A stretch of 64,000 nt of DNA from a virus (IMGVR_UViG_3300047159_000056:143397-207396); one strand, 5' to 3'. Positions 5,090 to 37,439 are shown, counted from the stretch's first letter. Notes: generated from the letters alone by a model not told the origin. Numbers and translations are program-made.

Positions 5090-5476
5090 TTATTTCTTAA
5101 GATTTATATCCACAATAGAACAAAACCCCTCAAGTTCTATAATTTTCTTAACTAAGCCAAGAATATCTTCATACTTTAAGGTTCCATTCATTGTCATAAG
5201 TAGCATAGTTCTTGTTGCATTCCCAGTATTTGTTCTTATGAATCTATTTGCACTTCTAATATAGTCATCTATATCATATTGATCGTAGTCCATATCTTCG
5301 GGAATATATATCTTTATGCCATCTTTCACTCTTTGATCTGGAATAATACTAATTGTGTCAGTAGGGATTTTTCCAACTACTTCATAATCTTCTATCTTTT
5401 CCTTATCCAGATCCCTAACTAATTTATCTATCATTGCTCCAGATGAGTAAGAATATATTTTTTCTAAGATCATCAT
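5090..5476 (-). CDS. Leader-family virion protein (MMILEKIYS)
   Basis: ORF with N-terminal KxYS motif. Confidence 0.55.
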   Translation of the reverse strand: MMILEKIYSYSSGAMIDKLVRDLDKEKIEDYEVVGKIPTDTISIIPDQRVKDGIKIYIPEDMDYDQYDIDDYIRSANRFIRTNTGNATRTMLLMTMNGTLKYEDILGLVKKIIELEGFCSIVDINLKK

Positions 5477-6768
5477 TTTTCAAATATATTAGGTTTCTCT
5501 CCACTAGACATAAGTTTCTTTAAGACAAAATCAAACTCATTTCTGTTTTGAATACAATATGTATATACTGTAGCTTTACCAATAGTGGACTTTTTTACTT
5601 TTCCACCAATTAATCCTTTAAATGATTTTTCTACTTTTTCTTCTTCCTTACTTCCACTAACTACTGAAACCATAAAAACTCCAGATACTAGAGAAATATT
5701 AATAGGACATTTAGTATCACCAATTGTATAATTAAATCCCTCAATATAATGTAAGTTGCCTAATCTTGATTTTAGAAATTCGTTATTAAAGTCCTGTGCT
5801 CTTGCTGGGAGACCTGCTTTAATTGCTTCATCGTTTCTAAGTTTACTAACACCAGAGTTTAGCATTTCAATTACTGATTCAGAAATAGCTTCTTTAGGAC
5901 CACCTCCAAAACCAAAACCTCCTACTAAACTACCAATACCATTAGAAATAATTTTAATGATATCGTATTTATTCAATCTTCCAAGTCCACCAACATTAAA
6001 GCTAAAGGTTTTTTCTTGATCACTTCCATCTCCCCCAGCTAAGTTTTCTTGATTTGGATATTGAAAATTAGTAGATGCATCCTCTAATCTTCTAGATATA
6101 ATTGCGTTATTATCAAGAAGATTAATTCTAGTTCCAAGTGTACTGCTAAGCTCCATTATAAAGTTACATATCACCTGATAATTAGTAAAGGTTATATCTA
6201 CTGCATAGGCCAAAGCTCTAGCATTTATTACTTTAGAGCTATATTCCATACTAAAATATTTCTTGCAATAATAGTCTAGAGTCTTATCTACTTTGTTAAA
6301 TTCATCTTTAGTTAAGCCAAATGTATATAAGGTAACTGTATTGTCGTGAATAGCTATGTTAATTTTATATTTAGAAACATCCCTATCGTTAAATTCAAAT
6401 TTCTCACTTATATTAGCTCTTCTATCTATACTATCTCCAACAGTGATGCCAGATACTTGATAAACTCCAAATTGTCTTCTAATGGCTTTATCAACTTCCT
6501 GATATTTAACATGATTCATTGGCTTGTGAAGATAATTAACAAAGAATTTAGCTGCTATACCAGATAGAAAACCAGCCTTAGCTCCAGTTATTGCATCGCT
6601 TATAATATGACCATCTCTGGATATTCCACCAACTAAGCCACCAATTCCAGCTCCTGCAAAAGTTCCCTTCGCTGCTAGTTCTGCTGCTCCAGGTATGTCT
6701 TCCATATCTTTAGGACCAGTATAGTGTCCCTCGGGTATAGTATAATTTTTTATTCTAAACTTAATCAT
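5473..6768 (-). CDS. Leader-family protein with glycine-zipper segment (MIKFRIKNYT; internal EKTFS)
   Basis: GAGIGGLVGG glycine zipper; leader motif. Confidence 0.6.
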   Translation of the reverse strand: MIKFRIKNYTIPEGHYTGPKDMEDIPGAAELAAKGTFAGAGIGGLVGGISRDGHIISDAITGAKAGFLSGIAAKFFVNYLHKPMNHVKYQEVDKAIRRQFGVYQVSGITVGDSIDRRANISEKFEFNDRDVSKYKINIAIHDNTVTLYTFGLTKDEFNKVDKTLDYYCKKYFSMEYSSKVINARALAYAVDITFTNYQVICNFIMELSSTLGTRINLLDNNAIISRRLEDASTNFQYPNQENLAGGDGSDQEKTFSFNVGGLGRLNKYDIIKIISNGIGSLVGGFGFGGGPKEAISESVIEMLNSGVSKLRNDEAIKAGLPARAQDFNNEFLKSRLGNLHYIEGFNYTIGDTKCPINISLVSGVFMVSVVSGSKEEEKVEKSFKGLIGGKVKKSTIGKATVYTYCIQNRNEFDFVLKKLMSSGEKPNIFEK

Positions 6769-6777
6769 AATATATAT

Positions 6778-7404
6778 TTATCTTCTTACAGGTACCATTC
6801 CAGTTGGTACACTCATCCTACCATATCCACTTTCCATAGTATTACCTATAGACTTAATGGTTGTCTTATTATTTCTTAGAGATTTGCTAAAGTTAGTTTT
6901 GCCATACCTATCAGATACTTTTTTCATAGCCCTAATGGCTCTATTTGGCATAAGAGGAACTTTTTGAACTACTGGAATTGCTGCACTATAACCAGGAGCA
7001 GTTAATGCAGCGCCAACAGGACCACCAATAGCTAAACCAACTGGAGTAGTTACTTGAGATGCAGCAGCTACTATTGCTACGTCAGGTCTTTGTATAGCAG
7101 TCTTTATTCCATTATCAACTACTCTTCCTATTGGAGTATTAACTACATTATTTACTCCTTGTTTTATTTCTACTGCTTCCCTATTAAGAGCCACTCCCTT
7201 TTTAGGAGAAAATCTAAATGCATCCGCAGGACTATTAACTGGCCTCTTTCCAAACATCCCTTTTACAGTTCTTTTGACAGAATCTCCAGCTCTTAAACCA
7301 GCATTATCTATCTTAGTCATGGTATTAGAATTGGCTAGTTTTCTATATTGTCTTACTAATCTTAGCGATTTGCTAGAATAAGTTTTATCTCGTAATATTA
7401 TCAT
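6778..7404 (-). CDS. Leader-family basic protein (MIILRDKTYS), paralog of 7411-8025
   Basis: Shares MTKIDNAGL and VVNTPIG..VD.GI...I.RPDVA with its neighbour. Confidence 0.7.
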   Translation of the reverse strand: MIILRDKTYSSKSLRLVRQYRKLANSNTMTKIDNAGLRAGDSVKRTVKGMFGKRPVNSPADAFRFSPKKGVALNREAVEIKQGVNNVVNTPIGRVVDNGIKTAIQRPDVAIVAAASQVTTPVGLAIGGPVGAALTAPGYSAAIPVVQKVPLMPNRAIRAMKKVSDRYGKTNFSKSLRNNKTTIKSIGNTMESGYGRMSVPTGMVPVRR

Positions 7405-7410
7405 AATTTT

Positions 7411-8025
7411 TTAATATGCTACAGAATTAGGTATAAATCCAGTGGACATAGGCATATGAGAAGCTCCTTTACTAATTCCTTGTCCTATAGTCTTTAAAGA
7501 AGCTTGACTATTATTTAATGTCTTACTCATACCAGTCTGACTATATTTTGTTGCTAATTTATCTAAAGAACCAAGGGCTTTCTTTGGAAGAAGTGGATGT
7601 TTCTGTACAAAACCAGCTGCCGCTTCTAAAGGTGCAGCACTCATGGCAACTCCAGTAGTTCCTCCAACAATTCCTGGGGTTAATTCAGCCGCTACTAAGG
7701 TTCCAGCTACATCTGGTCTTCTAATGGTTGCTTGTATACCTTTGTCAACCACACCACCAATAGGAGTATTAACTACCTTAGACGCTGTATTTTTCATACC
7801 AATAGTTTCTCTCCCGATTTGAGTTGCAGATTTTGGAGCTAATTTCTCAAGCTTATTCAATGGACGCCCACCACCTCGAATTGTATTTTGTAATGCCTTA
7901 TTTGTTGCTAGACCGGCATTATCTATCTTAGTCATGGCTTTATTCGCCACAGTTTTTGCGCCAGCTATTAGTTTTGTAAGGGCAGCTGAGTATTCCTTTT
8001 GTTCTTTATGTCTTAGTAGTATCAT
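7411..8025 (-). CDS. Leader-family basic protein (MILLRHKEQKEYS), paralog of 6778-7404
   Basis: Shared blocks as above. Confidence 0.7.
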   Translation of the reverse strand: MILLRHKEQKEYSAALTKLIAGAKTVANKAMTKIDNAGLATNKALQNTIRGGGRPLNKLEKLAPKSATQIGRETIGMKNTASKVVNTPIGGVVDKGIQATIRRPDVAGTLVAAELTPGIVGGTTGVAMSAAPLEAAAGFVQKHPLLPKKALGSLDKLATKYSQTGMSKTLNNSQASLKTIGQGISKGASHMPMSTGFIPNSVAY

Positions 8026-8031
8026 AGTTAT

Positions 8032-8874: not shown

Positions 8875-11392
8875 TTAAATTTGTCCAGTAAATGCAAGAC
8901 CCATATCCAAAGCTTCATTGTAAACCTCAATGAACTTAAGACTTCTATTGAATCTGACTTCTATTAGAACTTTCATCCTGTTTGCTCTCTTATCCTCGTC
9001 TGTATTTAGATCTGCGATTGTAATTCTATAATCGTCAATCGTGTACTGCATCGGTAGGATATTCTGAATAAACCAGTAATCGATCACACTATATGCATCA
9101 GAATAAAGAGTATCCGTAATATGTCTTCCATGGAATTGACGTAACAGTCTTGGCATTGATTTACTAATTCTAATCATAAGTCTAGAATTACCATCTTCGT
9201 CAAGGATATTATTTTCACTTTCCTTTGTATAGGCATCATTCATAACCCAAGTCTGAATTTGAGTATCCCACATTACTGTATTGATTCTCTTAGAGAGTAG
9301 AAGCTGTCTTTGTCTCTTATTAAATTCAACAACAGGAGACTGCATCTGTGCAACTGCTCTCTGACCAAACATAGACATGAACTCTCTATCAAGTCCTCTA
9401 TTTCTATTAACTGATTCCCAATAGATTGTTGAAGGAGCTGCATAGAACTTAAATCCTACTGTGCCAGTATCAACATCCCAAGGAGCTGAGCAATATAATT
9501 TATAGTGGTCTTTAGCCAATCTATTTACTGAGTTTGCAATAGCTAGATAGTTAGTACTATTTACAGTAGAAGCTGCATAGAAGTAGTTACTATTAATAGC
9601 CATGTTAGCCATATAAGACTGGAAAATGCCATTAGTATTTCCAAGGTCTGCTAATCCTTCTGTCTGATATACCTCGTCATCATCAATCTTATCGAGAGCT
9701 TTGAGAAGGTTAATATCAGTTACATTCAAGATATCATACTTAGTTGGATTGATGCTAAGATCAACATAGATTTCCTCAGGTTCAACATCAGTTACCACCT
9801 TATACTGATAATAAGTTCCAGCAACGTCAGTACCAATCTTAGCGTAATCTCCTTCTTTAGGATTAGTTACAACAGTTGTTAGTTCTGTTTGAGAAGTTGC
9901 AGTATAGCTAATTGTACCAGAAGCTGTAGTGATATCAGTTAGAGTCGTAGGAACCCACTGTCCACTTGTATACTTAAGATATGTTGCGTTAACTTTACCA
10001 ACTAGAGCATAATCACCTTCTTTTGGATTAGTAATATTAGCCAGAGTCTTCCTTAGTTGATACTGCATTCCCATCAGCAATTGTTACACCTGTTGGAGCC
10101 GTAGTAAGAGCAACCCATCCTGTTTTCTTGTCATCAGATACATAGCCATAATAGTCAAGACCTAAGTCTAACATATTATCTGGCAGCTGAACCTGGATCA
10201 TATTTAAGAGAGCATTAAGTTCTGCCTCTGTCATATCTCCACGACCAGTGATCTTACCAACATTATAATATTCAGGAATTCCACTTACACTAGGATCTAA
10301 GATAGCTAGCTCATAGAAGTCACGATCAGTAATTGTTGTGCTTAAGACACCACCATTAGCTGCCTTGCTCTTTGCATATGTAGCCAGGACTGATTCTAGT
10401 ACAATATAAGGAGAGTCACCACCAGCATCTGCACTATTTGTACTTAGTTCTTTTGTAACTACTGCATCATGATTGAATCTACGAATTCTAAGCTTAAGAT
10501 CGCTACTAGAATTATAAGCATTAGTTGCATAATTAGGAACATCATCAAAAGAAGATACTGTTACTAAGTCAACTAAGTGCTGATTCTTATTTGTTTCATA
10601 AGTCCAATCAGGTTCACAGATAACTACATAAGATACACCATTAGGGCATCTTGAATCAGTTGTATCAAGGAAGTCCGAGCCAATGTAAACTTCACTAAAG
10701 ATTACACTAGTTGCTGCTGTTGTAACTGAACCGTCTGCATTAATAGCAATTTCTGAAGTACCCTTTTCGTCAGAGTAGAACTTATAGCTAGGTGAGAAGA
10801 ACTTAGGAGAATCATTTAAGAAATCAACAAGTTCCTGAAGGTTCTGTACATAATAGTCATACTGAGCACCGGCATCAGTAGTTCTATTACCAATTACACC
10901 AACATCACCAACTGCAAGACCCCAACCGTCTGTGCTATGTTCTGCGCTATCCTTATCTTCATCAACCACAATCTTGAAAGACTGAACTTTCTTAAGTAAT
11001 TGACCATCTTTTAGGATATATACATTTTTATCTGTCTTACTAAGTGGTTTAGCAAAGTAGATATTGTCACCTTTGAATGCTCTAACAATCAGCAAATTAC
11101 CAGCACCAGCTAATCTATAAGCATTAAGCCACATAGTAGATGCAACAGTGTCTTTACCATTTCCATACAGTGTATCAATAGCTGTCATATAATCTTCTGT
11201 TAAATCTTTAGAAGCATATGTAGCCAAGAACTCTTTCTGGGATGTAATAAGTGTTGGAGTACTTGGACCAGCATCAGATACAATAGTACATCCGACAATT
11301 AGATCTTCTCCAGCTGTAGGATTGATAGCAGCAGTTCTAATTTTCTCATGAACGTGAATATACGGTTCAAGAGTTTCTTTCCATTGTGCCAT
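8875..11392 (-). CDS. Contractile tail sheath protein, split by a 1-nt frameshift near 10045 (ORFs 10037-11392 and 8875-10080)
   Basis: N-terminal EPYIHVHEK...GPSTPTLITSQKEF and C-terminal LLSKRINTV...RLMIRI...MKVLIEVRF are sheath-like. Removing one base restores STKEDLANITNPKEGDYA, matching the internal repeat VTNPKEGDYA. Confidence 0.8.
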
Positions 11393-11424: not shown

Positions 11425-12111
11425 TTAACCAACCTCTACTATATAAATGGGATAGCCAGACTTAATAAATGAATTAGCAATCTCTGATACTAGATCTGAA
11501 TCATTTGTCTTTCCTCCCGATATGGTAGATACAACTATTTCATTGAATTTATCTGACGTGGTATTTGTTTTAATCGCTCCATTAGGTACATTCTTAGAAA
11601 TTTTGTCAGTTAATGTTTTTAGTTTATAGTCATTTACAGTATTAATTAAGATCTTTAGGTCATTACTGTATTTATAGATAGCAATGCATACCTTCGTCTT
11701 AAGTTCAGATGCAGCCTTGGGATCTCTTGTAAAATCAATTCCTTCTCTGAATCCTTTTCTCTTAAGATCTGAGATAATTTCTTTCATCATTCTATTATCT
11801 ACAGTAGTTGACCTATTGAACTTTTCATTAATATCTCTAACAGCACCACATAAAGCTCCTAATGCTGCTCCAAGGATTAATCCACCACCAGTGATAGCTA
11901 AAGATCTACGATTAAATCCTCCGCCCATTTGATCATTCTTCTCATTAGAATCTGTCTTTAGGTACTTACTGAGGAATGGTATCTTATCACCAAGACTAGT
12001 ATGACCTAGGACAGCAGAAGATAATGCTCCTGTAGCTGCACCAATCTTAGCCCCATTTAATGTATCAGAGATAATATGACTACTAAATTCTTTTGCTCTA
12101 AATTTAATCAT
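11425..12111 (-). CDS. Leader-family glycine-zipper membrane protein (MIKFRAKEFS)
   Basis: GAKIGAATGA and GGGLILGAALGALCGA segments. Confidence 0.65.
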   Translation of the reverse strand: MIKFRAKEFSSHIISDTLNGAKIGAATGALSSAVLGHTSLGDKIPFLSKYLKTDSNEKNDQMGGGFNRRSLAITGGGLILGAALGALCGAVRDINEKFNRSTTVDNRMMKEIISDLKRKGFREGIDFTRDPKAASELKTKVCIAIYKYSNDLKILINTVNDYKLKTLTDKISKNVPNGAIKTNTTSDKFNEIVVSTISGGKTNDSDLVSEIANSFIKSGYPIYIVEVG

Positions 12112-12386: not shown

Positions 12387-12767
12387 TTAGTTATTATCAT
12401 TACCAATTCTTCTATGTCTACCTAAGAAACTAGAATTCTTCTTTTTCTTTGGTTGCTGAACTGGCTCCTCTACATGATTTTTATTGAAATTATCCATTGA
12501 AGAACTAACTCTATTCATTGTAGATGATGTATTCTGTAATTCATTAGTTAGTTTATTCATGGCATCCAACTGCTTATCTTGATAAATTTTATCACTTGCT
12601 TTTTTGTGCTTGGCATCTAGATAGTAAGCTGTTGATAAACCTAAAGAACCCATACCCATAATAGGAGTACCATATTCTTTAAAGGCTCCCCAACCTTTTT
12701 TTAATCCGCCCTGTACCTTTTTACCAATAATAGCGGCTGAGAATTCTTTTGCTCTGAACCTTATCAT
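12387..12767 (-). CDS. Leader-family protein (MIRFRAKEFS)
   Basis: Leader, then a hydrophobic Gly-rich helix and a coiled coil. Confidence 0.65.
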   Translation of the reverse strand: MIRFRAKEFSAAIIGKKVQGGLKKGWGAFKEYGTPIMGMGSLGLSTAYYLDAKHKKASDKIYQDKQLDAMNKLTNELQNTSSTMNRVSSSMDNFNKNHVEEPVQQPKKKKNSSFLGRHRRIGNDNN

Positions 12768-12785: not shown

Positions 12786-13202
12786 TTAATAGGAGTATCC
12801 ATCTCTATTAACCATATTATTTACCCAGTCTTTTCTTTCTCTTCTACCAGCTTGTCTCTTAGCATATGCTAGTCTACTATTAAAGAAATTATTTTCCTGA
12901 GCTTGTTTTCTGCCTTTCAAGTAGGATAGGCCTGCACCAATACCTGCACCTAAGAGAGCTCCCTTCTTAGAACCTAGGAGCATGCCTTTACCAATACCTC
13001 CACCAGCTTTTGAAAATCCTCCCAATACTGTACCAACTGCGGCACCACCTAGAGTACCAGTTATAGCACTTCCGGCAATATCTCCATAATTATGTGTTGG
13101 CCTTTTCTGAGTAGCTAAGATATCGGCATCTTTCATTCTCTTGAGATTGTCTGTATCATCCCATTGAGTAAATATTTTCCTTTTTAAAGTATATTTTGCC
13201 AT
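12786..13202 (-). CDS. Leader-family glycine-zipper protein (MAKYTLKRKIFT)
   Basis: GTLGGAAVGTVLGG and GALLGAGIGAG segments. Confidence 0.65.
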   Translation of the reverse strand: MAKYTLKRKIFTQWDDTDNLKRMKDADILATQKRPTHNYGDIAGSAITGTLGGAAVGTVLGGFSKAGGGIGKGMLLGSKKGALLGAGIGAGLSYLKGRKQAQENNFFNSRLAYAKRQAGRRERKDWVNNMVNRDGYSY

Positions 13203-13216: not shown

Positions 13217-14452
13217 TTATTGAATAGGAGGTTGATAGTATTGCTGCATATCTTGTTGCTGCTGTTGAACTTGTTTATCTTTAAAGTCTTGATACTTGAA
13301 TGCATTAGGATCAATTGCTCTAGTAGCCTTATCCATAGCCTTCTGTCCGCCTTCCCATCCTACTTTCATCATACCCATACCAACAGGAATAGAAGCAGCC
13401 AAGGCAATCTTAGAAGGCTGAACAACTCCATTCTTATCCAGGAAAGTCATTTTCTTAGCCATAGCCTGTGTCCAACTAGATTTTCCATGTAGTTTAAGAT
13501 CTTCAGCAACTGCTTTTACCCCGGCCTTTCCACCTCCCATTGAAAGGTTGGATGCCGTTCCAAGAAGTGTTTGCGCAGGATGATCTCTAAATGTTTTAAA
13601 TCCACTTTTTGTAGCATTCCAGGCAGCCGATGCTCCCTTTTTTATATTTGCTGGTCCATTTTTAAAGAAATTACTAGCTACTGATTTTATTCCATTCATT
13701 CTAACTAGCCTCATTACTGATGCAGGACTAGCATACTGTTTCTGCTGAGGACCACTAATACCGCTAAGAACTGAGCCCACTTGCTGATCTGGTAATTCTG
13801 TGCTGGCTAATTGATCTTTTATAGCTCTCTTGTCAGCTTTATATGCCATTACAGCAGGAATTGCAGTTAAACCACCAAAAGCTAGAGTCGAAGTCATATT
13901 ATTTTTTATAGCTCTTCTTCCAACTTTTAGCCCTCTCCTAGTTGTATCTCCCATAAGTGATGCAAGAGAATATGATTTAGTTCCCGGTTGACTTTGATCT
14001 TCGCCAGTCATAACATCTGTAAGACCACTTTTCTTCATATCATGCTGTATATATTTATTGGCACCATAACCTGCTAATGACATTCCAGCACCAGATACTA
14101 AGAGCCCAGCCATTTTTCCTTTATGTCTACTAGCTAAACCAACCATATCCTTTACAAATAGTTTTCCATTCTTCAGGGTAGTTGGATTAATTAGACCATA
14201 AAATTTTTCGTGTGGTTTATTTTGCATAATATCTGGAATTTGTCCAACTGCGCTAGGATCTTTTCCAACCTTCTCGGCAATATTATCCAATCTTCTATTC
14301 TGTTCTTTCATAAGATCTGCTTGTCTACTTGCTTCTTCTGCATTTTGTTCATCTGATTTCTTTTGCTGAGCTACACCTAATAATGAACTACCAACTAAGG
14401 CACCATTTATTAGGAGAGGCAGGAAGAATATTTTTTGTCTGTACCTTATCAT
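13217..14452 (-). CDS. Leader-family putative polyprotein (MIRYRQKIFF; internal KFYG, KSYS, KQYA)
   Basis: Four modules, each a motif followed by a hydrophobic helix and a Q-rich linker. Confidence 0.6.
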   Translation of the reverse strand: MIRYRQKIFFLPLLINGALVGSSLLGVAQQKKSDEQNAEEASRQADLMKEQNRRLDNIAEKVGKDPSAVGQIPDIMQNKPHEKFYGLINPTTLKNGKLFVKDMVGLASRHKGKMAGLLVSGAGMSLAGYGANKYIQHDMKKSGLTDVMTGEDQSQPGTKSYSLASLMGDTTRRGLKVGRRAIKNNMTSTLAFGGLTAIPAVMAYKADKRAIKDQLASTELPDQQVGSVLSGISGPQQKQYASPASVMRLVRMNGIKSVASNFFKNGPANIKKGASAAWNATKSGFKTFRDHPAQTLLGTASNLSMGGGKAGVKAVAEDLKLHGKSSWTQAMAKKMTFLDKNGVVQPSKIALAASIPVGMGMMKVGWEGGQKAMDKATRAIDPNAFKYQDFKDKQVQQQQQDMQQYYQPPIQ

Positions 14453-14472: not shown

Positions 14473-14769
14473 TTAGCTCTGGAGAGAATCACTTGCAGAC
14501 TTTAGACCTTTACCTAATCCTCTTACAGCAGCACCTTCTACACCAGCACCAACTACACGTCCTAAGATTTCTCCTCCTGGAACACCTAGTCCTGATAGAG
14601 TCGATCCTATAAATCCACCTACTGGACCCATAGCACCGTGAGCTGCACCAGCAATAGCAGCAGGGGTAGAATCAAGAGCTTTGCCAACTCCTCCAGCTAC
14701 TCCACCTATTGTATTTTGAGCCGCCTCAGCAAATCCAAATGTTTTTCTTTTTAAATGATATGTTGCCAT
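14473..14769 (-). CDS. Leader-family Gly/Ala-rich protein (MATYHLKRKTFG)
   Basis: ORF with leader motif. Confidence 0.65.
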   Translation of the reverse strand: MATYHLKRKTFGFAEAAQNTIGGVAGGVGKALDSTPAAIAGAAHGAMGPVGGFIGSTLSGLGVPGGEILGRVVGAGVEGAAVRGLGKGLKSASDSLQS

Positions 14770-14771: not shown

Positions 14772-15002
14772 TTATTCTTTCAAATCATTTATGTTAATTC
14801 CTCTATTCATCATGGAATTCATATTTCTGACCTCTTTACCAATATCCCCTATTCTAGATAATTCACGATGAGAAGTTTTCATTCTACCAAGACGATCGAG
14901 GTCTGTATCATACTTTCTTCCCTTAATAAATCCAAACTGTGAACCAGCATTAGTATTTAATATCTGATTACTAGAATATTGTTTATTTCTTAAGATAATC
15001 AT
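14772..15002 (-). CDS. Leader-family small protein (MIILRNKQYS)
   Basis: ORF with leader motif. Confidence 0.65.
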   Translation of the reverse strand: MIILRNKQYSSNQILNTNAGSQFGFIKGRKYDTDLDRLGRMKTSHRELSRIGDIGKEVRNMNSMMNRGININDLKE

Positions 15003-15006: not shown

Positions 15007-15651
15007 TTAATCCCCCAATAAATATATCTTATAGTTAAGCCCGAACGGTAATATATTAAGAGCAGCTATTGCATCTTGTATACTGTCAAACTCTAGCACT
15101 AATGATCTGCCAGGCTTATCATATTTTATTGCATCTCCTAAGAGTTTATGCACTGTCTTAGTTACATTGAAGTTTGGAGAGAATCTTGCGGAAGTAAATG
15201 GTGCCGGACCTTTCTTTTTATCATCAAAGCACTTAGTAGTAGGTCCATTAATAGACTCAGTTTCACTAAATTTCTTTCCACCCTTTCCTTGATTCTGGTT
15301 GTTATTATTATCCCCACCTGGAGCTTTCTTTGCAAACAATCCATTATCAATATTTAAAGATAGGTTACCAAGTCTTTCGTCATAATATTTACCAGGTAGT
15401 CTTACTTCATCTGGCATCTTAGCTCTTGCCCCAATCTTTAGATACATTCTGTATTTATCTTTTCCAAAGAAGGAAGTGCTAATTACAAAACGTTCTATTA
15501 CTATATTATTTCCTCTGAGTATAGGAATAAGAGAAGATTTATCTATAATAGGAAATCTCTGTTTATCATAATTTGTCAGCTTCATAAGTTCCACATATAG
15601 TGATCTCATAGCATCATACTCAGAAAATGTCTTTTCTCTAAATTTTATCAT
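15007..15651 (-). CDS. Leader-family protein (MIKFREKTFS)
   Basis: ORF with leader motif and internal KKFS. Confidence 0.65.
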   Translation of the reverse strand: MIKFREKTFSEYDAMRSLYVELMKLTNYDKQRFPIIDKSSLIPILRGNNIVIERFVISTSFFGKDKYRMYLKIGARAKMPDEVRLPGKYYDERLGNLSLNIDNGLFAKKAPGGDNNNNQNQGKGGKKFSETESINGPTTKCFDDKKKGPAPFTSARFSPNFNVTKTVHKLLGDAIKYDKPGRSLVLEFDSIQDAIAALNILPFGLNYKIYLLGD

Positions 15652-25608: not shown

Positions 25609-25609
25609 A

Positions 25610-25876
25610 TTACACTAAGAACATTATACCAGCACCTACAATACCACCAATTACCCAAGAAGCAAAATTCCATACATTAAATTTTCTTGACAAAACTAAT
25701 GTACAAACTCCTTCTACAAAAGCACCACTAATAATATCAATAATTATAGCAAGTACCCAAGCATTCTCAGCTGTACCAAGTGATCTCTCCTGCCAAATAG
25801 CTAAAACAGCCAGGATTAAACCTAGGACTGCAAAAAAGATCTTACTGTTAAACAATGTTGTTAAAATGGATTTCAT
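25610..25876 (-). CDS. Small membrane protein with about 3 TM segments (holin candidate)
   Basis: 88 aa with three hydrophobic stretches. Confidence 0.45.
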   Translation of the reverse strand: MKSILTTLFNSKIFFAVLGLILAVLAIWQERSLGTAENAWVLAIIIDIISGAFVEGVCTLVLSRKFNVWNFASWVIGGIVGAGIMFLV

Positions 25877-25894
25877 ATTTTATCCTCCTAATAT

Positions 25895-28374: not shown

Positions 28375-28408
28375 ATTCGTCTAATAATTCTTTTTATAAT
28401 TCTTTTAG

Positions 28409-28459
28409 TTTCTGTAGTCTCATTGAAGAGTAGATCCTTATTTCAAATCACTACAGAAA
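28409..28459 (-). ncRNA. Three-way-junction RNA element, copy B
   Basis: UUUCUGUAGU-GAUU...GGAUC-UA-CUC(UUCAAU)GAG-ACUACAGAAA. Confidence 0.7.
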
Positions 28460-28468
28460 GTATATATT

Positions 28469-29038
28469 TTATTTCTTTTTATTCCACTTCTTAGCAAATT
28501 CAGACTTTGTCATATTGCCATTAGCTACTTCTGTTAAATCAACATCTCTCTCGAATGCCTTTTCATTATTCTTCCAGAATTTCTTTCCTGTTGGATTTTT
28601 GGATTCTTTTATAGAGTGATTTCTAATAGCTTTACTAACTCTAGTACTTCCATATCCTAATCCAGCACCTACTCCAGCACCAGCAAGACCACCAATAGCG
28701 GCTCCTTTAGCTCCTCCTTTAACATAGCCTAAACCTGCTCCAGTAATAGAACCAAGAGCACCATTGACAATAGCCTCTCTTTTCCCGGCTTTTTTCCATG
28801 CCTCTGGATCATTTTTACCAAGTCCTACAACCAAATTTCTTTCTCCTTTTGTCATAAGATGCTTTCTATTCCATGCGGTGACTTTGTCTAGAAGCTTCAT
28901 CTTAGGCTCATCTTCTGGATCTGAATACATTAGCTCATCTAAGTATTGATCTTCATCTACAAATTCTGTGGTGCTAAATAGTCTTTCCTCTCCACTCTCA
29001 TCTTGTAGTGTAGAGAATACTTTTCTTCTTATATACAT
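28469..29038 (-). CDS. MYIRRK-subfamily glycine-zipper protein
   Basis: Leader plus GAKGAAIGGLAGAGVGAGLG. Confidence 0.75.
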   Translation of the reverse strand: MYIRRKVFSTLQDESGEERLFSTTEFVDEDQYLDELMYSDPEDEPKMKLLDKVTAWNRKHLMTKGERNLVVGLGKNDPEAWKKAGKREAIVNGALGSITGAGLGYVKGGAKGAAIGGLAGAGVGAGLGYGSTRVSKAIRNHSIKESKNPTGKKFWKNNEKAFERDVDLTEVANGNMTKSEFAKKWNKKK

Positions 29039-29127: not shown

Positions 29128-29673
29128 TTAGAAATTATAATTTCTCTTCATATATTCTTTCTTAGACATCTTGCCATCTGCTACCTTCATTAGGTCTACG
29201 TCATCCTGCAATTCCTGTCTATAATTATTTGTATATTTGTGTCTTAGGGCTTCCTTCTGATTTTTTGCCAACTTTCTTGAAGCAAGAGCACCAATACCTG
29301 CACCAACTCCAGTACCAGCAAGAGCACCAATAGCAGCTCCCTTAGCACCAGCCATAGATCCCATACCTGCTCCATAGAGCCCGCCAATTACACCACCTAC
29401 TTGGCCACCACGTTTGGTTGTATGTTTAATATACGGCTCCCAATCATTTTTCTCAATAGCATTCTCTGCTACTTCTCTTCCTTTTTTGGTTTTAAACCAC
29501 TTAAGATCTCTAAGTCTAGCTTTATCGGATTTTGTAAGTTCCTGATCTTCATCATCAGAGAAACAAATTTCGTCTAGATATTCGTCTTCATTCATAAATT
29601 CAGTTGTACTGAACAATCTTTCCTCACCATTTTCATCTTCAAATGTAGAGAATACTTTCCTTCTTATATACAT
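29128..29673 (-). CDS. MYIRRK-subfamily glycine-zipper protein
   Basis: Leader plus GAKGAAIGALAGTGVGAGIG; C-terminal KVADGKMSK shared with 24176. Confidence 0.75.
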   Translation of the reverse strand: MYIRRKVFSTFEDENGEERLFSTTEFMNEDEYLDEICFSDDEDQELTKSDKARLRDLKWFKTKKGREVAENAIEKNDWEPYIKHTTKRGGQVGGVIGGLYGAGMGSMAGAKGAAIGALAGTGVGAGIGALASRKLAKNQKEALRHKYTNNYRQELQDDVDLMKVADGKMSKKEYMKRNYNF

Positions 29674-29678: not shown

Positions 29679-30068
29679 TTATTTCTTTTTATTTTTGTAG
29701 TGATTATATGCCATTATCCCAGCTCCTGCAAGAACCGTTCCAGCTGTAGCAAGAGAAATGGCTTTTTTATTTCTCTTAAAGAAAGAGTCCTTTGGCTTTA
29801 CTATATAATAATTTTGTGGTAAGTGCTTAGCAATTTCCTGTTCACTTTCTGGAATAATAGTTTCCATTCCAGCTAGCTTCTTTGCCTTCTCTAATGCTTT
29901 TTCTCTATTATTATCTAGATATTCTTTCAAAGGTTTAAATGGACCTTGCTTTCTTAGTTTTCTATATTTATCAGCCAGTTCTTTTCTGGTTTTCTTTAAA
30001 TACTTAGATTCAGCACTATTAAGAGAAATATAATCCCTCTTAGCAAAATTTTTATTTAGTAGTATCAT
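29679..30068 (-). CDS. Leader-family tail-anchored protein (MILLNKNFA...AYNHYK)
   Basis: Carries both motifs. Confidence 0.65.
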   Translation of the reverse strand: MILLNKNFAKRDYISLNSAESKYLKKTRKELADKYRKLRKQGPFKPLKEYLDNNREKALEKAKKLAGMETIIPESEQEIAKHLPQNYYIVKPKDSFFKRNKKAISLATAGTVLAGAGIMAYNHYKNKKK

Positions 30069-30598
30069 TTCTTATTAAGTTTCTTTAACCTATCCTTAGT
30101 ATTTATCTCAGCACCAAGAACAGCAGATTTTCTCTTTTTTAATATCTTAGGAATATGTGCTCCTGCTGCTACTAATGCTACTCCAGCTCCTATAAGACCA
30201 GCCTTTTTACTTATCTTTGGAGCTACCCCATTAGCAAATGCAGTAGCTTTATTATATGGTAATTTGCCGTTCTCTTGTAAATAATTTATAGCATTCTTTC
30301 CAAACTTAGAAACTAAGTAAGCTGCTCCTCCGTATTTTACTGCATCTTCTACTGGATCCTCCATATTTTCAAGAAGAACCTTATTTCCGGCAGCTCTTTT
30401 TGCAGCCTTTACTATATGCTCATCATCTTTACCTTCTGCAAAAGCTTCATCTGCTGCTTTTTGTCCAGCCCTAAATGACTCTTCAGCTTCAGTTTTCTTA
30501 TTTCTATCTTGAGTCCAACCTACACCAATTCTAGATCCTGGTAAAACAGTTCTAGTTCTATTGGATGATTTACTGAAGTTTGTTCTCCTTAGTATCAT
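30065..30598 (-). CDS. Leader-family protein (MILRRTNFS)
   Basis: Leader plus hydrophobic helix. Confidence 0.65.
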   Translation of the reverse strand: MILRRTNFSKSSNRTRTVLPGSRIGVGWTQDRNKKTEAEESFRAGQKAADEAFAEGKDDEHIVKAAKRAAGNKVLLENMEDPVEDAVKYGGAAYLVSKFGKNAINYLQENGKLPYNKATAFANGVAPKISKKAGLIGAGVALVAAGAHIPKILKKRKSAVLGAEINTKDRLKKLNKK

Positions 30599-30609: not shown

Positions 30610-31017
30610 TTATTTAGACTGGTTCTGTTTTTTCTTCTTGTAGTGTGTATATGCTAAGGTTGCAGCGCCCGCTAAAGCACCACTCATTGCAGCACTACCC
30701 ATAGCCATCTTATGATTCTTAATAAAATTTCCGACCCTCTTTGTAAGCTTCTCTTTAACAGGAGTTATTACTTTAGTTTCACCATTCAATATCTTATATT
30801 TAGAATCTAAGAGTTCTTTCCTAGCATCAGAAATAGCAGATTGTCTTAAGGCATCCTTAACTGGTTTACCAAATATTATTCCCTTAAGTCCACTAGCTCT
30901 TGTATTTCTAATTGAGTCAGCTACGGCCTTTCTTTTGCCCTTGAGAATTTCAGCTTCTCTTTTTGTTAAGCCTTCATAATCGGCTCTAGCAAAATTTTTA
31001 TTTAGGAGTATTATCAT
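30610..31017 (-). CDS. Leader-family tail-anchored protein (MIILLNKNFA...AYTHYK)
   Basis: Carries both motifs. Confidence 0.65.
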   Translation of the reverse strand: MIILLNKNFARADYEGLTKREAEILKGKRKAVADSIRNTRASGLKGIIFGKPVKDALRQSAISDARKELLDSKYKILNGETKVITPVKEKLTKRVGNFIKNHKMAMGSAAMSGALAGAATLAYTHYKKKKQNQSK

Positions 31018-31018: not shown

Positions 31019-32887
31019 TTAAAATATATTTTCTAGCATATCTTGTACTACCTTTGCTGACTCTTCTCTAGAATCTTCAGCCATTTTAGAGATAATGCTA
31101 AGTTGTTTATCTACCCCATTACTATATCCAGATTCCTCTCCAGCATCTATAGACATTTTTAAGCTATAACATGCACTAGCCAAGGAATCCCAAACATCTT
31201 TACTTCCTTTTCCATTATTAACATCAAAGACATTAGAATTTTGAGTTGCTTTCTTAGGGTGATCTATTTTATATCCCTTTGAAGTAGGAACATATCTAAG
31301 ATCATAAGCCTCCCTTAATAATCTTCTATTTTCTGGTATCTCAATCATTTCTAAGAGTATGAGATTTTTTAAATATAAGGCTGGATCACAAGGAACATTA
31401 TCAGTAGAAATTCTTCCGTTAGTAGCTATGTTTTCCCTTTCACAATCTTGAAGAATTTGTTTAGAGAAAGCTATATCGGCACTAACTACAATATTATATG
31501 TTTTCTTAAGAGACATAATTAAGTCAAATACATGAAATAAACTAGTCTCTTGTCCTTCCTTTCGAGCTATAGCCAAACTAAATATACACTTAACTTTAGG
31601 CCACTTAACTCCATTTATTATCTCCCAACCATCAAACTGAACTGCACTCATTCCAGTATAATCATCTACTGTAGCTAAGTCAAGTCCTAACCAAATAGTA
31701 GAAGTTGGTCTAACTAATGATAAGGCAGGAGAAATTTTATCTATTATTCTATCAGTCTTATCAAAAAAGTCAACCTGGATAATCTCTGGTATATTATTCT
31801 TTTTCTTATAACAATTTACCATATGCTCCATGTTTCCACCAAAGAATGAATCAGATGCACTAGTAGAAACACCACACTTATCCTGTAATGTTTTTTCTAG
31901 ATTCAATTTGCATTCAACCATTAATTGCCAGGGTAATCTAAGAACTCTATCTGGATCTTGGTCTTCTGCTAATTTATAATCTTCAGCTAATATTTGTGGA
32001 GGATATTTACCATCTCCTATATATACTGGGAAAGTTCTACCACGACTCTCTTTATAGGATTGTGGTTTAACTTCATAATGAGTTGGCTTACAGTACCAAG
32101 TTAAATCAGAAGGAGAATTATCTAAGAACCATTCAGTACAGGAATTATTACCTTTTGCTGAGGAGTCTATAATTAAGTTTCCCACCTTAGTCATTGCATC
32201 TCTATCAAATCTAGATGTAAAACGACCATATGCTGTTTCAACTATTCCTTGCGCTTTCTCTTGATTAGGATAGAAGTTAATCTCACTTATTATATATACA
32301 AGAACATCACTACCAAGACCAGCCTGACTTAGAGGGCCTGATGTTAGTACTTGAAATTTAAAACTTTTCTTAGTATTTTTGAAGAATGGTGACTTTTCCA
32401 AAACTTCTTGAGTAAACCAATACTTAAACTCTTTTCTTGCAACCTCTTCATCCCTGTGATAGATAACTGCACTAAAAGGCTTTGGAGTTAGTTTAAGAGT
32501 TCTACTAGGATTATTCATACAAAGAAGTCTAGCATAAGTCATAGCTAAACATAATCTAGATACAGTAGACTTACCAGTACCAATTGCTCCAGATAGAACT
32601 AAGAATGGTTTTGCAGTTAAGACAGAACTGGGATAAATTATTGGTAAACTCTTCTTCCAATAGTCAAAGAGATTATTTCCTTTATCAAAAAATTCTGTTC
32701 CTCCTAAGAAATACTCATCAGAATATAATTGCTCTATACTAGGTGGTATTTTATTGTAACCATTTATCTTACAAAATATTAATAGTTTTTCTTCATCCGT
32801 TAACTTTGCATATTGCTCCTCTATTGAAACTCCACTGAAATCAATTAGGGATGTTGGGTCTGTATGATCTATAAAACTATTTATCAT
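31019..32887 (-). CDS. terL: Terminase large subunit
   Basis: Walker A SGAIGTGKST, Walker B-like YIISE, coupling motif DSS, nuclease GLDLA...KDVWDSLA. Confidence 0.85.
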   Translation of the reverse strand: MINSFIDHTDPTSLIDFSGVSIEEQYAKLTDEEKLLIFCKINGYNKIPPSIEQLYSDEYFLGGTEFFDKGNNLFDYWKKSLPIIYPSSVLTAKPFLVLSGAIGTGKSTVSRLCLAMTYARLLCMNNPSRTLKLTPKPFSAVIYHRDEEVARKEFKYWFTQEVLEKSPFFKNTKKSFKFQVLTSGPLSQAGLGSDVLVYIISEINFYPNQEKAQGIVETAYGRFTSRFDRDAMTKVGNLIIDSSAKGNNSCTEWFLDNSPSDLTWYCKPTHYEVKPQSYKESRGRTFPVYIGDGKYPPQILAEDYKLAEDQDPDRVLRLPWQLMVECKLNLEKTLQDKCGVSTSASDSFFGGNMEHMVNCYKKKNNIPEIIQVDFFDKTDRIIDKISPALSLVRPTSTIWLGLDLATVDDYTGMSAVQFDGWEIINGVKWPKVKCIFSLAIARKEGQETSLFHVFDLIMSLKKTYNIVVSADIAFSKQILQDCERENIATNGRISTDNVPCDPALYLKNLILLEMIEIPENRRLLREAYDLRYVPTSKGYKIDHPKKATQNSNVFDVNNGKGSKDVWDSLASACYSLKMSIDAGEESGYSNGVDKQLSIISKMAEDSREESAKVVQDMLENIF

Positions 32888-32912
32888 ATATTATCCAACT
32901 TATTTTATTTAG

Positions 32913-32959
32913 TTTCTGTAGTCTCATCGAAGAGTAGACACCTAAAGTCGCTACAGAAA
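32913..32959 (-). ncRNA. Three-way-junction RNA element, copy D
   Basis: UUUCUGUAG-c-GAC(uuuaggu)GUC-UA-CUC(UUCGAU)GAG-a-CUACAGAAA. Confidence 0.7.
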
Positions 32960-32967
32960 GTATATTT

Positions 32968-33453
32968 TTAAATTCCGATTATTTCTCTAAGAGGACGTCC
33001 TTTTCCTCCATTAATAGATTGCATTCTTGAATTAAATTTTGCAAGGTCTACAGCATTCTTAACGGCTTTCTTAGTAACTGGCTGACCAGATTCTCTAAGG
33101 CCTACTCTAGCAAATCTTCCTAAAGCTTTTTGTACACTTGGATTAGTGGTGTTATATATTCCTTTTCCGGCTCTTCCAGATCTTCCAGCTATACCAATGA
33201 CTTTATTTATTACTTCCTCCTTATTTGCATTCTCTATTCCTCTTCTGCTGATCTTTTTACCAATATCTCTTATTCTAGAAAGTGCTTTGGCCTGACTTCT
33301 TATAGATGCATACTCTTTCTGTTCAGGTTCTTCGTCAGAATACATCATTTCATCCAGATATTGATCTTCGTCTACAAATTCTGTAGAACTAAATAGTCTT
33401 TCCTCACCATTCTCATCTTCAAATGTCGAGTATAGTTTACGTCTTATATACAT
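32968..33453 (-). CDS. MYIRRK-subfamily basic protein (true start 33453)
   Basis: MYIRRKLYSTFEDENGEERLFSSTE; internal QKEYA. Confidence 0.75.
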   Translation of the reverse strand: MYIRRKLYSTFEDENGEERLFSSTEFVDEDQYLDEMMYSDEEPEQKEYASIRSQAKALSRIRDIGKKISRRGIENANKEEVINKVIGIAGRSGRAGKGIYNTTNPSVQKALGRFARVGLRESGQPVTKKAVKNAVDLAKFNSRMQSINGGKGRPLREIIGI

Positions 33454-35173: not shown

Positions 35174-35185
35174 AATTATAACTCC

Positions 35186-35335
35186 TTAATTTGTAGTTGA
35201 TTTATCAGTTGCAGCTGCCTTTGATGCTCTTTCCATTTCCTCACCAAGAGATGCAGCTTGTTCTCCGTAGTCTTCATTTTGCATAGCCTCTACGTCAGAA
35301 TCTGAAACTGAATATTTCTTTCTTAATAATATCAT
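35186..35335 (-). CDS. 49-aa leader-family peptide (MILLRKKYSVSDSDVEAM...), below the ORF-track cutoff
   Basis: Translated by hand; ATGA overlap with the upstream stop. Confidence 0.65.
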   Translation of the reverse strand: MILLRKKYSVSDSDVEAMQNEDYGEQAASLGEEMERASKAAATDKSTTN

Positions 35336-35781
35336 TGCTGTGGTTGTTGTTGAGATTGATCTAGATTACTTTTCTTCTTTAGAAACATAGATCCAAGTAC
35401 ACCAGCTGCAGCTAATCCAAGTCCAGCTTTTCCCATTCTTGCTATATTTTTTCCAGCACCTGTAGCACCAAATTTACTCATGTCTCTAACATAACCAGAT
35501 GCTTGTTTATAATTCATCCTCATATTGGGGCTAGTAAGAACAGTTTTTAATCCTCCTTCTACTCCATTATTAATCAAAGCTTTATTTGCAGCAATACCAT
35601 GTTGAATTGCAGAGGCAGTGGCTAGACCTGCTCCAGTTACAGCAGCTCCTTTGGCTATAGTGGAACCTATATTGCTTCCTTGAGAATTATCTTGTGAATC
35701 ACCATTAATGGATCCAGTATTTTTTCCACTTCCAGTCATAAAATCCATCATCCCAAAAGATTTATTTCTTAGTATTATCAT
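35332..35781 (-). CDS. Leader-family protein (true start MIILRNKSFG at 35781)
   Basis: Leader plus two Gly/Ala helices. Confidence 0.65.
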   Translation of the reverse strand: MIILRNKSFGMMDFMTGSGKNTGSINGDSQDNSQGSNIGSTIAKGAAVTGAGLATASAIQHGIAANKALINNGVEGGLKTVLTSPNMRMNYKQASGYVRDMSKFGATGAGKNIARMGKAGLGLAAAGVLGSMFLKKKSNLDQSQQQPQQ

Positions 35782-36421
35782 TTCTACTATTCTTATCTTT
35801 ATAGTGTTTATATGCAACTAATCCAAGACCAGCTAGAGTTAAGGCAGATGCTCCACCAACTAATAATTTTCCCTTCTTTGATTCTAGGAAAGTATCACCT
35901 AGATTTGGATTAGACATAACATCTTTTAACATGGCAGATTTTTCTCTACCTATTTCTATATATCTATTTGGAAACTCTTTTCTAACCTTTCTTATTCCAG
36001 AGGCTAGAGCTTTCCTATAAGACTTCAATGCCTTAGTCTGATTTTTATTAAGACCTTTAAAATCAGATCTAGAGAAACTTTTTATCATATCCATCCTATT
36101 ATTTCCAGTATCATTAGATTTAACCCAACCTAATTTAGTATATAGGTCTACAGCTTTCTTATTACTTTTTGTTACTGATAATTTTTTAGCAGGGCTACGT
36201 TCTAAAAGACTTGTTGCTATTCCTTGATTTCTATATTTTGGATCTACAAATAGTGCAGTTATCCAATCATTTTCCCAGGATTTAAAACCAACCAGGGAAG
36301 ACTTATCAACTAACATTATTCCTTTAGTTTTACCAGGAATATATCTAGCATGGCAAAGAGAATTTCCAGGCCTTTTATATTGTAGTATATTTTCCTTGTT
36401 ATATTCTATTTCTTTTACCAT
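35762..36421 (-). CDS. GNAT acetyltransferase fused to a leader-family tail-anchored module
   Basis: LFVDPKYRNQGIATSLL and N..AVDLYTKLGW GNAT motifs, then IKSFS...AYKHYK. Confidence 0.75.
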   Translation of the reverse strand: MVKEIEYNKENILQYKRPGNSLCHARYIPGKTKGIMLVDKSSLVGFKSWENDWITALFVDPKYRNQGIATSLLERSPAKKLSVTKSNKKAVDLYTKLGWVKSNDTGNNRMDMIKSFSRSDFKGLNKNQTKALKSYRKALASGIRKVRKEFPNRYIEIGREKSAMLKDVMSNPNLGDTFLESKKGKLLVGGASALTLAGLGLVAYKHYKDKNSRNDNTKK

Positions 36422-36560
36422 AATTTATTTCAGTTTATTTTTACATAATCTGGGGAAGTGTGTTTAACTCAGGTCTCCTCTTTCTACCTGACACCTCCCA
36501 CTAGCATCAATTAGTTTTACCGTTAGTTATGTTAGCTACTGTACTTCACTAAACTTACGA

Positions 36561-36707
36561 CTATAACCACATTGGACCTTTGTATCCCTTGTCGTAAAGA
36601 TTTTCATAACTCTTAGCTGCTAAAAGTATATAAGCTTTAAACGGCAAAATCAAATAATGACCTGTCGTTTTAGCAGCCGTCTTAATAAAATTAAAAACTG
36701 CTTTCAT
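36561..36707 (-). CDS. 48-aa peptide (MKAVFNFIKTAAKTTGHYLILPFKAYILLAAKSYENLYDKGYKGPMWL)
   Basis: Translated by hand. Confidence 0.45.
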   Translation of the reverse strand: MKAVFNFIKTAAKTTGHYLILPFKAYILLAAKSYENLYDKGYKGPMWL

Positions 36708-36753
36708 AATAGAACTAAGATGTGGAGTCGAACCACAACCTAGTTAAATTTGT

Positions 36754-36797
36754 TCTCTCAGTCTAATTGAAGAGATAGGTTCTTCACCTCTGAGAGA
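36754..36797 (-). ncRNA. Three-way-junction RNA element, copy E (diverged)
   Basis: UCUCUCAG-a-GGU(gaaga)ACC-UAU-CUC(UUCAAU)UAG-a-CUGAGAGA. Confidence 0.55.
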
Positions 36798-36802
36798 TAT
36801 AT

Positions 36803-37439
36803 TTATTTATCCTTATAATGATTATATGCAAGTAATCCAGCACCAGTTACAGCAGCGGCTCCTGTTACAGCAGTTGCTACTTTATGATTGCCAATAAATT
36901 TACCCATCTTTCCTATAAAAGATGTATTATTAGGTTTAAATGTTTGATTTGTTACCCCACCGTGAACAAAATTTGCAGCTTTAACCTTTGGGCTAATAAT
37001 TTCTGCCTGTTTAGTTACCTTGGCTGCAGCTTCTCTTGCAGCTTTTGATTGAGCTAATTGCTGCTGATGCTCTTGTGAAAGATTACCTATTCTTTGATTT
37101 ATATTTTGTCTAGTTGTTTGATTAGCAACAGATTTTGGAATTCCGGCCCTATTAGCAGATCTTCCATTAACTAATAATTCTTCCTGTATAGCTCCTTTAT
37201 TTTGTGTAGCTTTATCTTGAAAAATTTTAAATTTTGCATTCTCTGTTCCACGCTTAGCTACAATTGGACTATTTGCTGCACCATTAACATCATATTTAGC
37301 ATTATATTTAGGATTGGCAGCAATATTTCCCTGATTCATATCCCAGGAAGCTCTTCTAGCTTTCTGAGCTTGGGAGTTAAATGTCTTTTCACTTAGTACC
37401 CCCCCCCCCGAGGAAGGTATTGTCTCTCAGTATTATCAT
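36803..37439 (-). CDS. Leader-family tail-anchored protein interrupted by a G11 tract (37399-37409); in frame at G10
   Basis: G10 gives MIILRDNTFLGGGVLSEKTFNSQAQKARRASWDM...; C-terminus AYNHYKDK. Confidence 0.7.

Follow-up and report, generated by a model that had tools for sequence, protein, structure and literature searches.

The last 64 kb of a 207,396-bp virus record in IMG/VR (IMGVR_UViG_3300047159_000056:143397-207396), which is the whole stretch of DNA analysed here and is called the window below, contains a long series of minus-strand genes whose mostly small products begin with nearly the same nine or ten residues and continue into dissimilar bodies. The question raised by this locus is what such a tag does on so many different proteins encoded among the head genes of a phage. 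A previous reading of the sequence alone (the sequence-only reading) had seen in it a portable signal for loading cargo into the capsid. In the analysis described here, the N-terminal peptide is probably a removable head-assembly propeptide, a functional analogue of the capsid-targeting sequence (CTS) of phage T4, and its terminal core would be the recognition site of the phage's own prohead protease. This explanation starts from the motif and its distribution, the fold of the protease with its conserved His and Ser, and the conservation of the sites across relatives; from these we infer that the motif is cut, that the part in front of it directs proteins into the head, and that the virion contains the cargo.

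A shared N-terminal peptide in the head-gene block

Gene calling on the whole record gave 271 genes, 57 of them in the head-gene block and 214 elsewhere. The tag is found at the N-terminus of minus-strand genes of this block, with the consensus M-I-x-[LF]-[RK]-x-K-x-[FY]-[SGTA] over 9-10 residues and with several subtypes: M-Y-I-R-R-K-x-[FY]-S, M-A-T-Y-x-L-K-R-K-x-[FY], and short forms such as M-I-L-R-R-x-F-S. All the leaders quoted in the sequence-only reading were recovered by translation at the 5′ ends of minus-strand open reading frames (ORFs). By hand count, about 36 of the 57 block genes are tagged (hereafter leader genes); 28 lie inside positions 5090-37439, two of which are degenerate or tiny (15638-16021 and 25504-25608), and the record has 8 or 9 more just outside the window on its left (window coordinates -9932 to -3572). 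With a strict regular expression, 29 of the 57 block genes matched, as did 5 of the 214 genes elsewhere (Fisher p = 2.7e-18), and the M-I-hydrophobic prefix is absent from all five matches outside the block. The tag is thus confined to one gene block and absent from the replication genes, so that the refuting outcome named in the sequence-only reading did not occur.

Selection acts on the peptide and not on a nucleotide element, because the copies differ in their synonymous codons for Ile, Leu, Arg, Phe, Tyr and Ser (ATA/ATT, TTA/CTA/CTT/TTG, AGA/CGA/AGG/CGT, TTT/TTC, TCT/TCA/AGT/TCG) and a comparison of the DNA upstream of the leader genes found no conservation. BLASTP of the bodies at E 1e-3, after removal of the first 12 residues, joined only one five-member family, two pairs and one four-member family, the last of which lies left of the window, and leaves at least 20 sequence-unrelated bodies within the window. 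The earlier statement that the bodies are unrelated is therefore largely right and needs amending only for these few families and pairs. It is conceivable that the tag is the inherited N-terminus of one old paralogous family whose bodies have diverged, or a translation-initiation element acting at the nucleotide level; several tagged genes are demonstrable paralogues, and many bodies have a low-complexity, Gly/Ala-rich composition that masks homology. The variable codons and unconserved upstream DNA speak against either origin, as do the tag on a GNAT domain of independent origin, its presence or absence between orthologues, and the enrichment of the core motif inside non-paralogous head proteins (see below), so that common descent or an initiation element is a very improbable source of the tag.

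Relatives were collected with a back-translated pattern of one tag subtype, which retrieved 78 stretches from IMG/VR contigs mostly 200-400 kb long; one further locus brought the total to 79. In these 79 loci, 357 of the 980 called ORFs are tagged. Orthologues keep the consensus positions of the tag while its other positions drift, and the tag as a whole is gained or lost between orthologues: one untagged protein of the window has a tagged homologue in another phage. In one relative (L050:8386-9369), a GNAT acetyltransferase domain scoring above the Pfam cut-off follows a clean tag. Because it is gained or lost between orthologues and is present on the GNAT domain, the tag behaves as a portable module.

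The core motif, the prohead protease and the proposed maturation route

The terminal core of the tag also occurs within proteins. Beyond residue 14, [RK]-x-[FY]-S is found 41 times in block proteins against 10.4 ± 3.1 in composition-preserving shuffles, whereas the same count outside the block shows no excess (51 vs 48.8 ± 7.3). The excess sites concentrate where prohead proteases are known to act, namely in the scaffold-like protein, the capsid and portal N-termini, and the linker of the protease itself (coordinates of all features are given in Table 1). The acidic scaffold-like protein has 13 [RK]-x-[FY]-[SA] sites and three repeats of about 120 residues bounded by sites. Each repeat opens with two close core sites, x-[RK]-F-F-S and then, about 14 residues on, x-R-x-[FY]-S. 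Reading this gene from an upstream GTG gives a tag-like N-terminus, and comparison with two relatives (L001 and L007) suggests that the GTG is the true start; the N-termini of the orthologues are conserved. In the neighbouring zinc-ribbon protein, two of the five sites fall within the first 34 residues, beside a tag-like N-terminal stretch ending in L-F-G. All three core sites of the portal-like protein are within residues 10-51 of 564, and the capsid protein has both of its sites between residues 36 and 63 of 484. Among 20 aligned close homologues of the capsid protein, no variation is seen at K36-M-F38 or at F59-S60, and at least 90% keep K57; about 60 N-terminal residues are variable, and the sequence beyond the second site is near-invariant. 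The variable stretch is predicted to be the capsid propeptide and the rest the mature body. Such a propeptide of about 60 residues is close in length to that of T4 gp23.

This distribution bears on the idea that the tag is never cut and remains on the mature protein as a docking or anchor peptide, joined by strand addition to a common partner such as the scaffold, the portal or the inner surface of the capsid. In favour of this idea, the tag is short and amphipathic. However, it ends in exactly the motif that recurs so densely in the scaffold-like protein, in the protease linker and in the variable N-terminal parts of the capsid and portal proteins, and if those are cleavage sites, the exposed N-terminal copy should be cut too. 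A permanent anchor is accordingly regarded as improbable.

The sequence-only reading had assigned the protease role to the 413-residue product of 22817-24058, and by its predicted fold the protein is a prohead protease. Residues 1-187 adopt a gp21/assemblin fold, residues 189-259 form a linker, and residues 260-400 make up a helical C-terminal domain. In a Foldseek search, the AlphaFold model (predicted local distance difference test (pLDDT) score 86) had T4 capsid assembly protease gp21 (5jbl) as its best match with probability 1.00. VIA-align superposed the model on 5jbl with Z 11.8 (root-mean-square deviation 2.7 over 130 residues), followed by the proteases of varicella-zoster virus (Z 9.4) and cytomegalovirus (Z 8.1). 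There are 183 homologues among 50%-identity cluster representatives. Across 60 aligned homologues, R52 and S134 are invariant and H49 is near-invariant, and alignment offsets indicate that Ser134 and His49 are the likely equivalents of the catalytic residues of gp21. Many of the homologues (P0035-P0150) consist of a catalytic domain of about 165 residues only, or of the C-terminal helical domain behind another N-terminus; such architectures suggest that the two protease domains are shuffled between phages. Two distant homologues, each used alone to look for related loci, retrieved none.

All four core sites of the protease lie in the linker. The four F-S sites are conserved in 18 close relatives, in which S192 and S209 are invariant and K206, F208, F237 and S238 are present in at least 90%, and the linkers of all full-length relatives, down to 25% identity, contain 2-5 [KR]-x-[FY]-[SGTA] sites. 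The retention of linker sites across relatives ties the motif to the enzyme family and not just to this genome. This has a bearing on whether another enzyme of the host or the phage, such as a Prp-like protease, removes the tag. Prp, a cysteine protease, removes nine residues from ribosomal protein L27 as well as from the capsid and scaffold proteins of Staphylococcus phage 80alpha, to our knowledge its only two phage substrates, and its sites have the same geometry as the tag: nine residues at the N-terminus, the last of them (P1) aromatic, and a small residue at P1′. Unlike the tag, its motif is hydrophobic-N-L-Q-F-F↓A (the arrow marks the bond cut), and a search of the record, which is about 56% complete, found neither a PF04327 match nor an L27 gene. 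As the motif is kept in the linker of the gp21-fold protease across the whole family, there is very little to expect of such a second enzyme.

When 34 N-terminal tags and the 41 internal sites are aligned on the aromatic residue, the tags turn out to be the more elaborate. In the tags, P3 is K in 31 of the 34, P1 is F or Y, and P1′ is S in 24 and G, A or T in 10; further upstream, P5 is R or K in 26, P6 is L, I or F in 29, and P7-P8 are hydrophobic. The internal sites have only P3, P1 and P1′ in common with them and lie between acidic flanks. The prefix M-I-hydrophobic-[LF]-[RK] is found in full on the N-terminal tags, and two protease linker sites, with L-K-x-K-x-F-S, have its L-K part. Since it is confined mostly to the tags, the prefix looks like an additional function, most likely affinity for the prohead core. 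Alternatively, the tag may be a processing site only: the protease would clip the peptide, the bodies would drive incorporation, and the prefix would be extended recognition (P9-P5). The tag-like L-K-x-K-x-F-S of the two linker sites is compatible with P6 and P5 being part of the site, and the internal sites, if cut, work with the four-residue core alone. Nevertheless, the M-I-hydrophobic prefix is carried by the tags and absent from most of the 41 internal sites (the two linker sites keep L-K), and it is hard to see why about 36 unrelated proteins should retain a nine-residue propeptide that has no role before its removal. In T4, moreover, the equivalent peptide is necessary and sufficient for targeting (PMC9026906). 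A tag that serves processing only is therefore considered unlikely.

The preferred explanation, a removable head-assembly propeptide, can be laid out as a series of steps. The hydrophobic-basic prefix M-I-hydrophobic-[LF]-[RK] would bind tagged proteins to the assembling prohead core, and about 36 mostly basic small proteins together with a few enzymes would in this way be co-assembled into the prohead and later freed inside by cleavage. On completion of the shell, the gp21-fold protease would be activated and released from its C-terminal helical domain by a cut in its own linker. It would then remove the tags, fragment the acidic scaffold-like protein, and trim about 60 residues off the capsid protein and about 50 off the portal, and the mature, mostly basic proteins would remain in the head with the DNA. 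The bond cut would be the one that joins [FY] to the small residue, in analogy to the A↓S site of herpesvirus assemblin and to the P1′ Ser preference of SPN3US gp245.

Several points weigh against this explanation. First, cutting, targeting and packaging are all steps that we infer for this phage group, and the scissile bond is placed by analogy, beyond what computation locates. Second, the characterised gp21-type phage proteases all cut after Glu as far as we know, and an aromatic P1 would be unprecedented for the phage members. Third, Pfam has no match for the protease or for 60 of its homologues, with S77 and S78 undetected; a PF03420 search of the record at E ≤ 1 found nothing and the S78 profile was also negative, so that the homology of the protease rests on fold and gene order. 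Fourth, the AlphaFold model of the capsid protein (pLDDT 50, built on a shallow alignment in which identity is 76% or more) is too poor to place the sites on the fold. Finally, the record being about 56% complete, another protease could be encoded elsewhere.

Gene block, tagged products and relatives

CheckV rates the record 56% complete, so that the phage would be a jumbo phage with a genome of roughly 370 kb. The GC content is about 33%, and the minus strand carries nearly all genes from window position 1 to about 54,000. The tag-bearing block spans about 45 kb, beginning some 10 kb outside the window on its left and ending at window position 35,781; tail-type genes lie further left and replication and nucleotide-metabolism genes to the right, both without the tag. 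Wastewater and bioreactor-sludge metagenomes of at least 10 studies (2021-2025) contain near-identical DNA, with 95-100% of the sampled words recovered. Contigs from RNA libraries cover the block with sparse short exact pieces, which fit transcription or carried-over DNA alike and are not used as evidence.

Table 1. Positions in the window of leader genes and head-module genes, with the basis of each assignment
Feature	Position	Strand	Basis
Leader gene	5090-5476	-	N-terminus
Leader gene, 431 aa (amino acids), two further internal core sites	5473-6768	-	N-terminus, site scan
Paralogous pair of leader genes, isoelectric point (pI) 10-11	6778-7404; 7411-8025	-	N-termini, BLASTP
Leader gene, 228 aa, glycine zipper right after the tag	11425-12111	-	Pfam Gly-zipper_YMGG 29.3 bits (cut-off 28.9)
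Run of seven adjacent leader genes	12387-12767; 12786-13202; 13217-14452; 14473-14769; 14772-15002; 15007-15651; 15638-16021	-	N-termini
Two leader genes, M-A-T-Y-x-L-K-R-K-x-[FY] subtype, G+A-rich bodies	17155-17782	-	N-termini, composition
Putative major capsid protein, gp23-like, 484 aa, no N-terminal tag	17920-19374	-	Alignment, Protein Atlas, hhalign
Acidic scaffold-like protein, 848 aa, pI 4.1, in gp22 position	19398-21944	-	Gene order, composition, site scan
Zinc-ribbon protein, 291 aa, five core sites	21955-22830	-	Site scan
Prohead protease, 413 aa	22817-24058	-	Predicted fold, conserved His/Ser, gene order
Two leader genes of the five-member family	24176-24661; 24667-25170	-	N-termini, BLASTP
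Two leader genes, the second of 34 aa	25243-25500; 25504-25608	-	N-termini; 34-aa ORF conserved in L001
Leader gene, 154 aa	25895-26359	-	N-terminus; tagged orthologues in 12 loci
Portal-like protein, 564 aa	26680-28374	-	Protein Atlas Portal_T4 lead (neighbours); N-terminus conserved in 20 loci
Five leader genes	28469-29038; 29128-29673; 29679-30068; 30065-30598; 30610-31017	-	N-termini
Terminase-large-subunit-like protein, 622 aa, no tag	31019-32887	-	Weak P-loop matches, gene order, homologues in 17 loci
Leader gene, fifth M-Y-I-R-R-K family member, directly upstream of the terminase gene	32968-33453	-	N-terminus, BLASTP
Leader gene, 97 aa	34176-34469	-	N-terminus
Two leader genes	35186-35335; 35332-35781	-	N-termini
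GNAT acetyltransferase domain fused in frame with a body of the 29679/30610 family	35762-36421	-	Pfam Acetyltransf_7 36.9 bits (cut-off 27), BLASTP

The tagged products are mostly basic. The pI is 9-11.4 in about 24 of 34 tagged proteins, and the untagged structural proteins have pI 4-6. Many tagged bodies have a G+A fraction of 0.2-0.44, one exceeds the Pfam Gly-zipper cut-off, and some have a terminal hydrophobic helix. The earlier description of the bodies as mostly Gly/Ala-rich helices or glycine zippers thus holds for many of them, but basic pI is the more general property. The accompanying proposal of membrane-active cargo ejected into the host envelope is unsupported, as the tagged proteins are mainly basic (pI 9-11), in which they resemble the internal proteins of T4, and only some contain a hydrophobic segment; for the glycine-zipper subset it is possible.

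Several tagged products contain core sites in addition to the tag itself. The 411-residue product of 13217-14452 has three additional internal K-x-Y-[GSA] sites, and members of the five-member family have, behind the tag, a second site, R-L-F-S, at about residue 22. In the run of seven leader genes, the tags are kept in the L001 orthologues; that of 15638-16021 is degenerate. The bodies of 29679-30068 and 30610-31017 have a terminal hydrophobic helix followed by a conserved Y-x-H-Y-K motif, and where a body of this family is fused to the GNAT domain, a tag-like M-I-K-S-F-S stands at the junction (residues 113-118). In relatives, GNAT is also found as a separate protein of 120-130 residues with a degenerate tag (L033:1742-2125, L003:1864-2232). 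Pfam matches to Pesticin, Form_Nir_trans and TMEM51 on tagged proteins of relatives were below threshold and were rejected as unreliable.

Some further features of the block are recorded here. Immediately before each of the terminase, portal and protease genes stands one of the five M-Y-I-R-R-K family members, separated from the gene by an intergenic spacer of 80-117 nt (24059-24175, 28375-28468 and 32888-32967). A plus-strand gene at 25587-25946 was called by a simple gene caller, and the minus-strand ORF at 25610-25876 is likelier to be the real gene; it encodes 88 residues with a transmembrane-like N-terminus and has a counterpart in L001 (5245-5502). The gene at 3-4637 and the one left of it encode acidic proteins of 1557 and 764 residues that lie amid the tagged block with neither a Pfam match nor a tag, and the 764-residue protein is similar to a 399-residue protein encoded at 8875-10074.

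The head genes are arranged in the order terminase-like, portal-like, protease, zinc-ribbon, acidic scaffold-like and capsid, an architecture like that of T4. The capsid (gp23-like) and portal identities are leads backed by transitive evidence. For the capsid protein, PF07068 (Gp23) was a lead in Protein Atlas; hhalign related the protein to that of the E. coli phage IME392 with 96.3% probability (E 1.8e-9), and the IME392 protein passes PF07068 (26.5 bits vs a cut-off of 24.4). A direct Pfam search of the capsid protein gave no PF07068 match, and a PDB sequence-profile search with its alignment found nothing. PHROGs and Pfam searches with ten large head-block proteins gave nothing useful, and no match to the protease was found in PHROGs or in a PDB sequence-profile search. 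The terminase-like protein has only ORFs of about 430-515 residues as its best matches in the 370-kb relatives L003, L009, L014 and L017, where the genes may be split or contain insertions. Fragmented portal and protease genes have been described for the group covered in the Jug-phage paper.

The protease had no tblastn match in 50,697 deposited phage genomes, and for the capsid protein the deposited genomes offered no more than a short matching stretch in two E. coli phages. One of these two is IME392, in whose head proteins the motif is absent. The group therefore has no cultured model, since deposited genomes contain no match to the protease and the IME392 head proteins lack the motif. A literature search found no description of the tag or the motif, nor does the Jug-phage paper, on 360-402-kb gut phages, mention them.

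Implications and comparison with known systems

The analysis predicts a gp21-fold protease that cuts [KR]-x-[FY]↓S in a phage group without a cultured member, which is recurrent in wastewater and sludge metagenomes and has relatives including contigs of 360-400 kb. A broader and more tentative proposal, with somewhat less than an even chance of being right, is that in a widespread clade of 200-400-kb phages the site of the ancient gp21/assemblin protease has changed from after-Glu to basic-x-aromatic↓small, and that a universal nine-residue tag packs 40 or more proteins for delivery with the DNA. If true, the cargo would consist of basic DNA-associated proteins, glycine-zipper proteins, and enzymes such as acetyltransferases, and capsid cargo would account for about one tenth of the genes in the 207-kb record. 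If the predicted cutting holds, the motif would be a rule by which mature protein ends and lists of head cargo could be read from the sequence of hundreds of uncultured huge phages, the T4 scheme of tagging, loading and clipping would be seen to work with another cleavage motif and for dozens of cargo proteins, and foreign proteins could be packaged into these phages with the tag as a handle. For annotation, caution is advisable because current Pfam and PHROG profiles miss this clade's head protease, capsid protein and portal.

The sequence-only reading had also likened the locus to a bacteriocin leader/core library. None of the tags ends in G-G, and the comparison is a loose analogy. Herpesvirus assemblins (those of varicella-zoster virus, human cytomegalovirus and herpes simplex virus 2) resemble the present protease in their fold (Z 8-9) and Ser/His centre, and in their system scaffold and protease are cut, as is predicted here, at a short motif whose P1′ residue is Ser (A↓S). 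They differ in that P1 is Ala and not aromatic, in having no N-terminal cargo tag, and in belonging to eukaryotic viruses.

Parallels are also offered by phiKZ, 201phi2-1 and SPN3US, whose jumbo heads likewise contain dozens of proteins and whose gp21-related protease has a C-terminal propeptide. Several redundant sites occur in their propeptides, and portal and capsid are trimmed, as is predicted for the present phage. C-terminal self-processing is shared by gp21, phiKZ gp175 and SPN3US gp245 (PMC9026906, PMC10052503), and gp245 is reported to prefer Ser at P1′ (PMC10052503, PMC5694885). Unlike the motif [KR]-x-[FY]-S found here, the sites of gp175 and gp245 are of the type (S/A/G)-x-E and are cut after Glu (PMC10052503, PMC5694885). 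The propeptides of these phages are mostly long (20-254 residues) with no uniform short tag, and in SPN3US nine substrates are known and 42 head proteins are uncut (PMC10052503, PMC5694885).

The closest comparison is with T4. Its CTS is a peptide of 10 residues on the internal proteins IPI-III and Alt that is removed by gp21, with targeting determinants in the N-terminal part and processing determinants at the end (Mullaney and Black 1996, reviewed in PMC9026906). The present tag is likewise an N-terminal peptide of about 10 residues on otherwise unrelated, mostly basic proteins of the head module, and it too splits into a prefix and a terminal core, to which targeting and processing would be assigned. 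As in T4, it ends in a motif also found in the scaffold and the capsid propeptide, the sharing of the motif being observed and its cleavage predicted. A gp21-fold protease, with predicted C-terminal self-processing, lies in the head module between the portal and the scaffold and capsid genes, and gp20-, gp21-, gp22- and gp23-like genes stand in the T4 order. The analogy with the T4 CTS drawn in the sequence-only reading is thus apt, given the gp21-fold protease, the shared maturation motif, the confinement of the tag to one block and its occurrence on independent folds such as GNAT. The differences are that the predicted site is [KR]-x-[FY]-[SGTA] and not [LI]-x-E, that the tag sequences are unrelated, that the portal is apparently trimmed too, and that the protease and capsid are missed by the Pfam S77 and Gp23 models. 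The system therefore agrees with the T4 class of CTS and internal proteins in architecture but not in cleavage motif. What distinguishes it is the changed site and tag sequence together with a very high share of tagged genes, about 36 or more per genome against a handful in T4.

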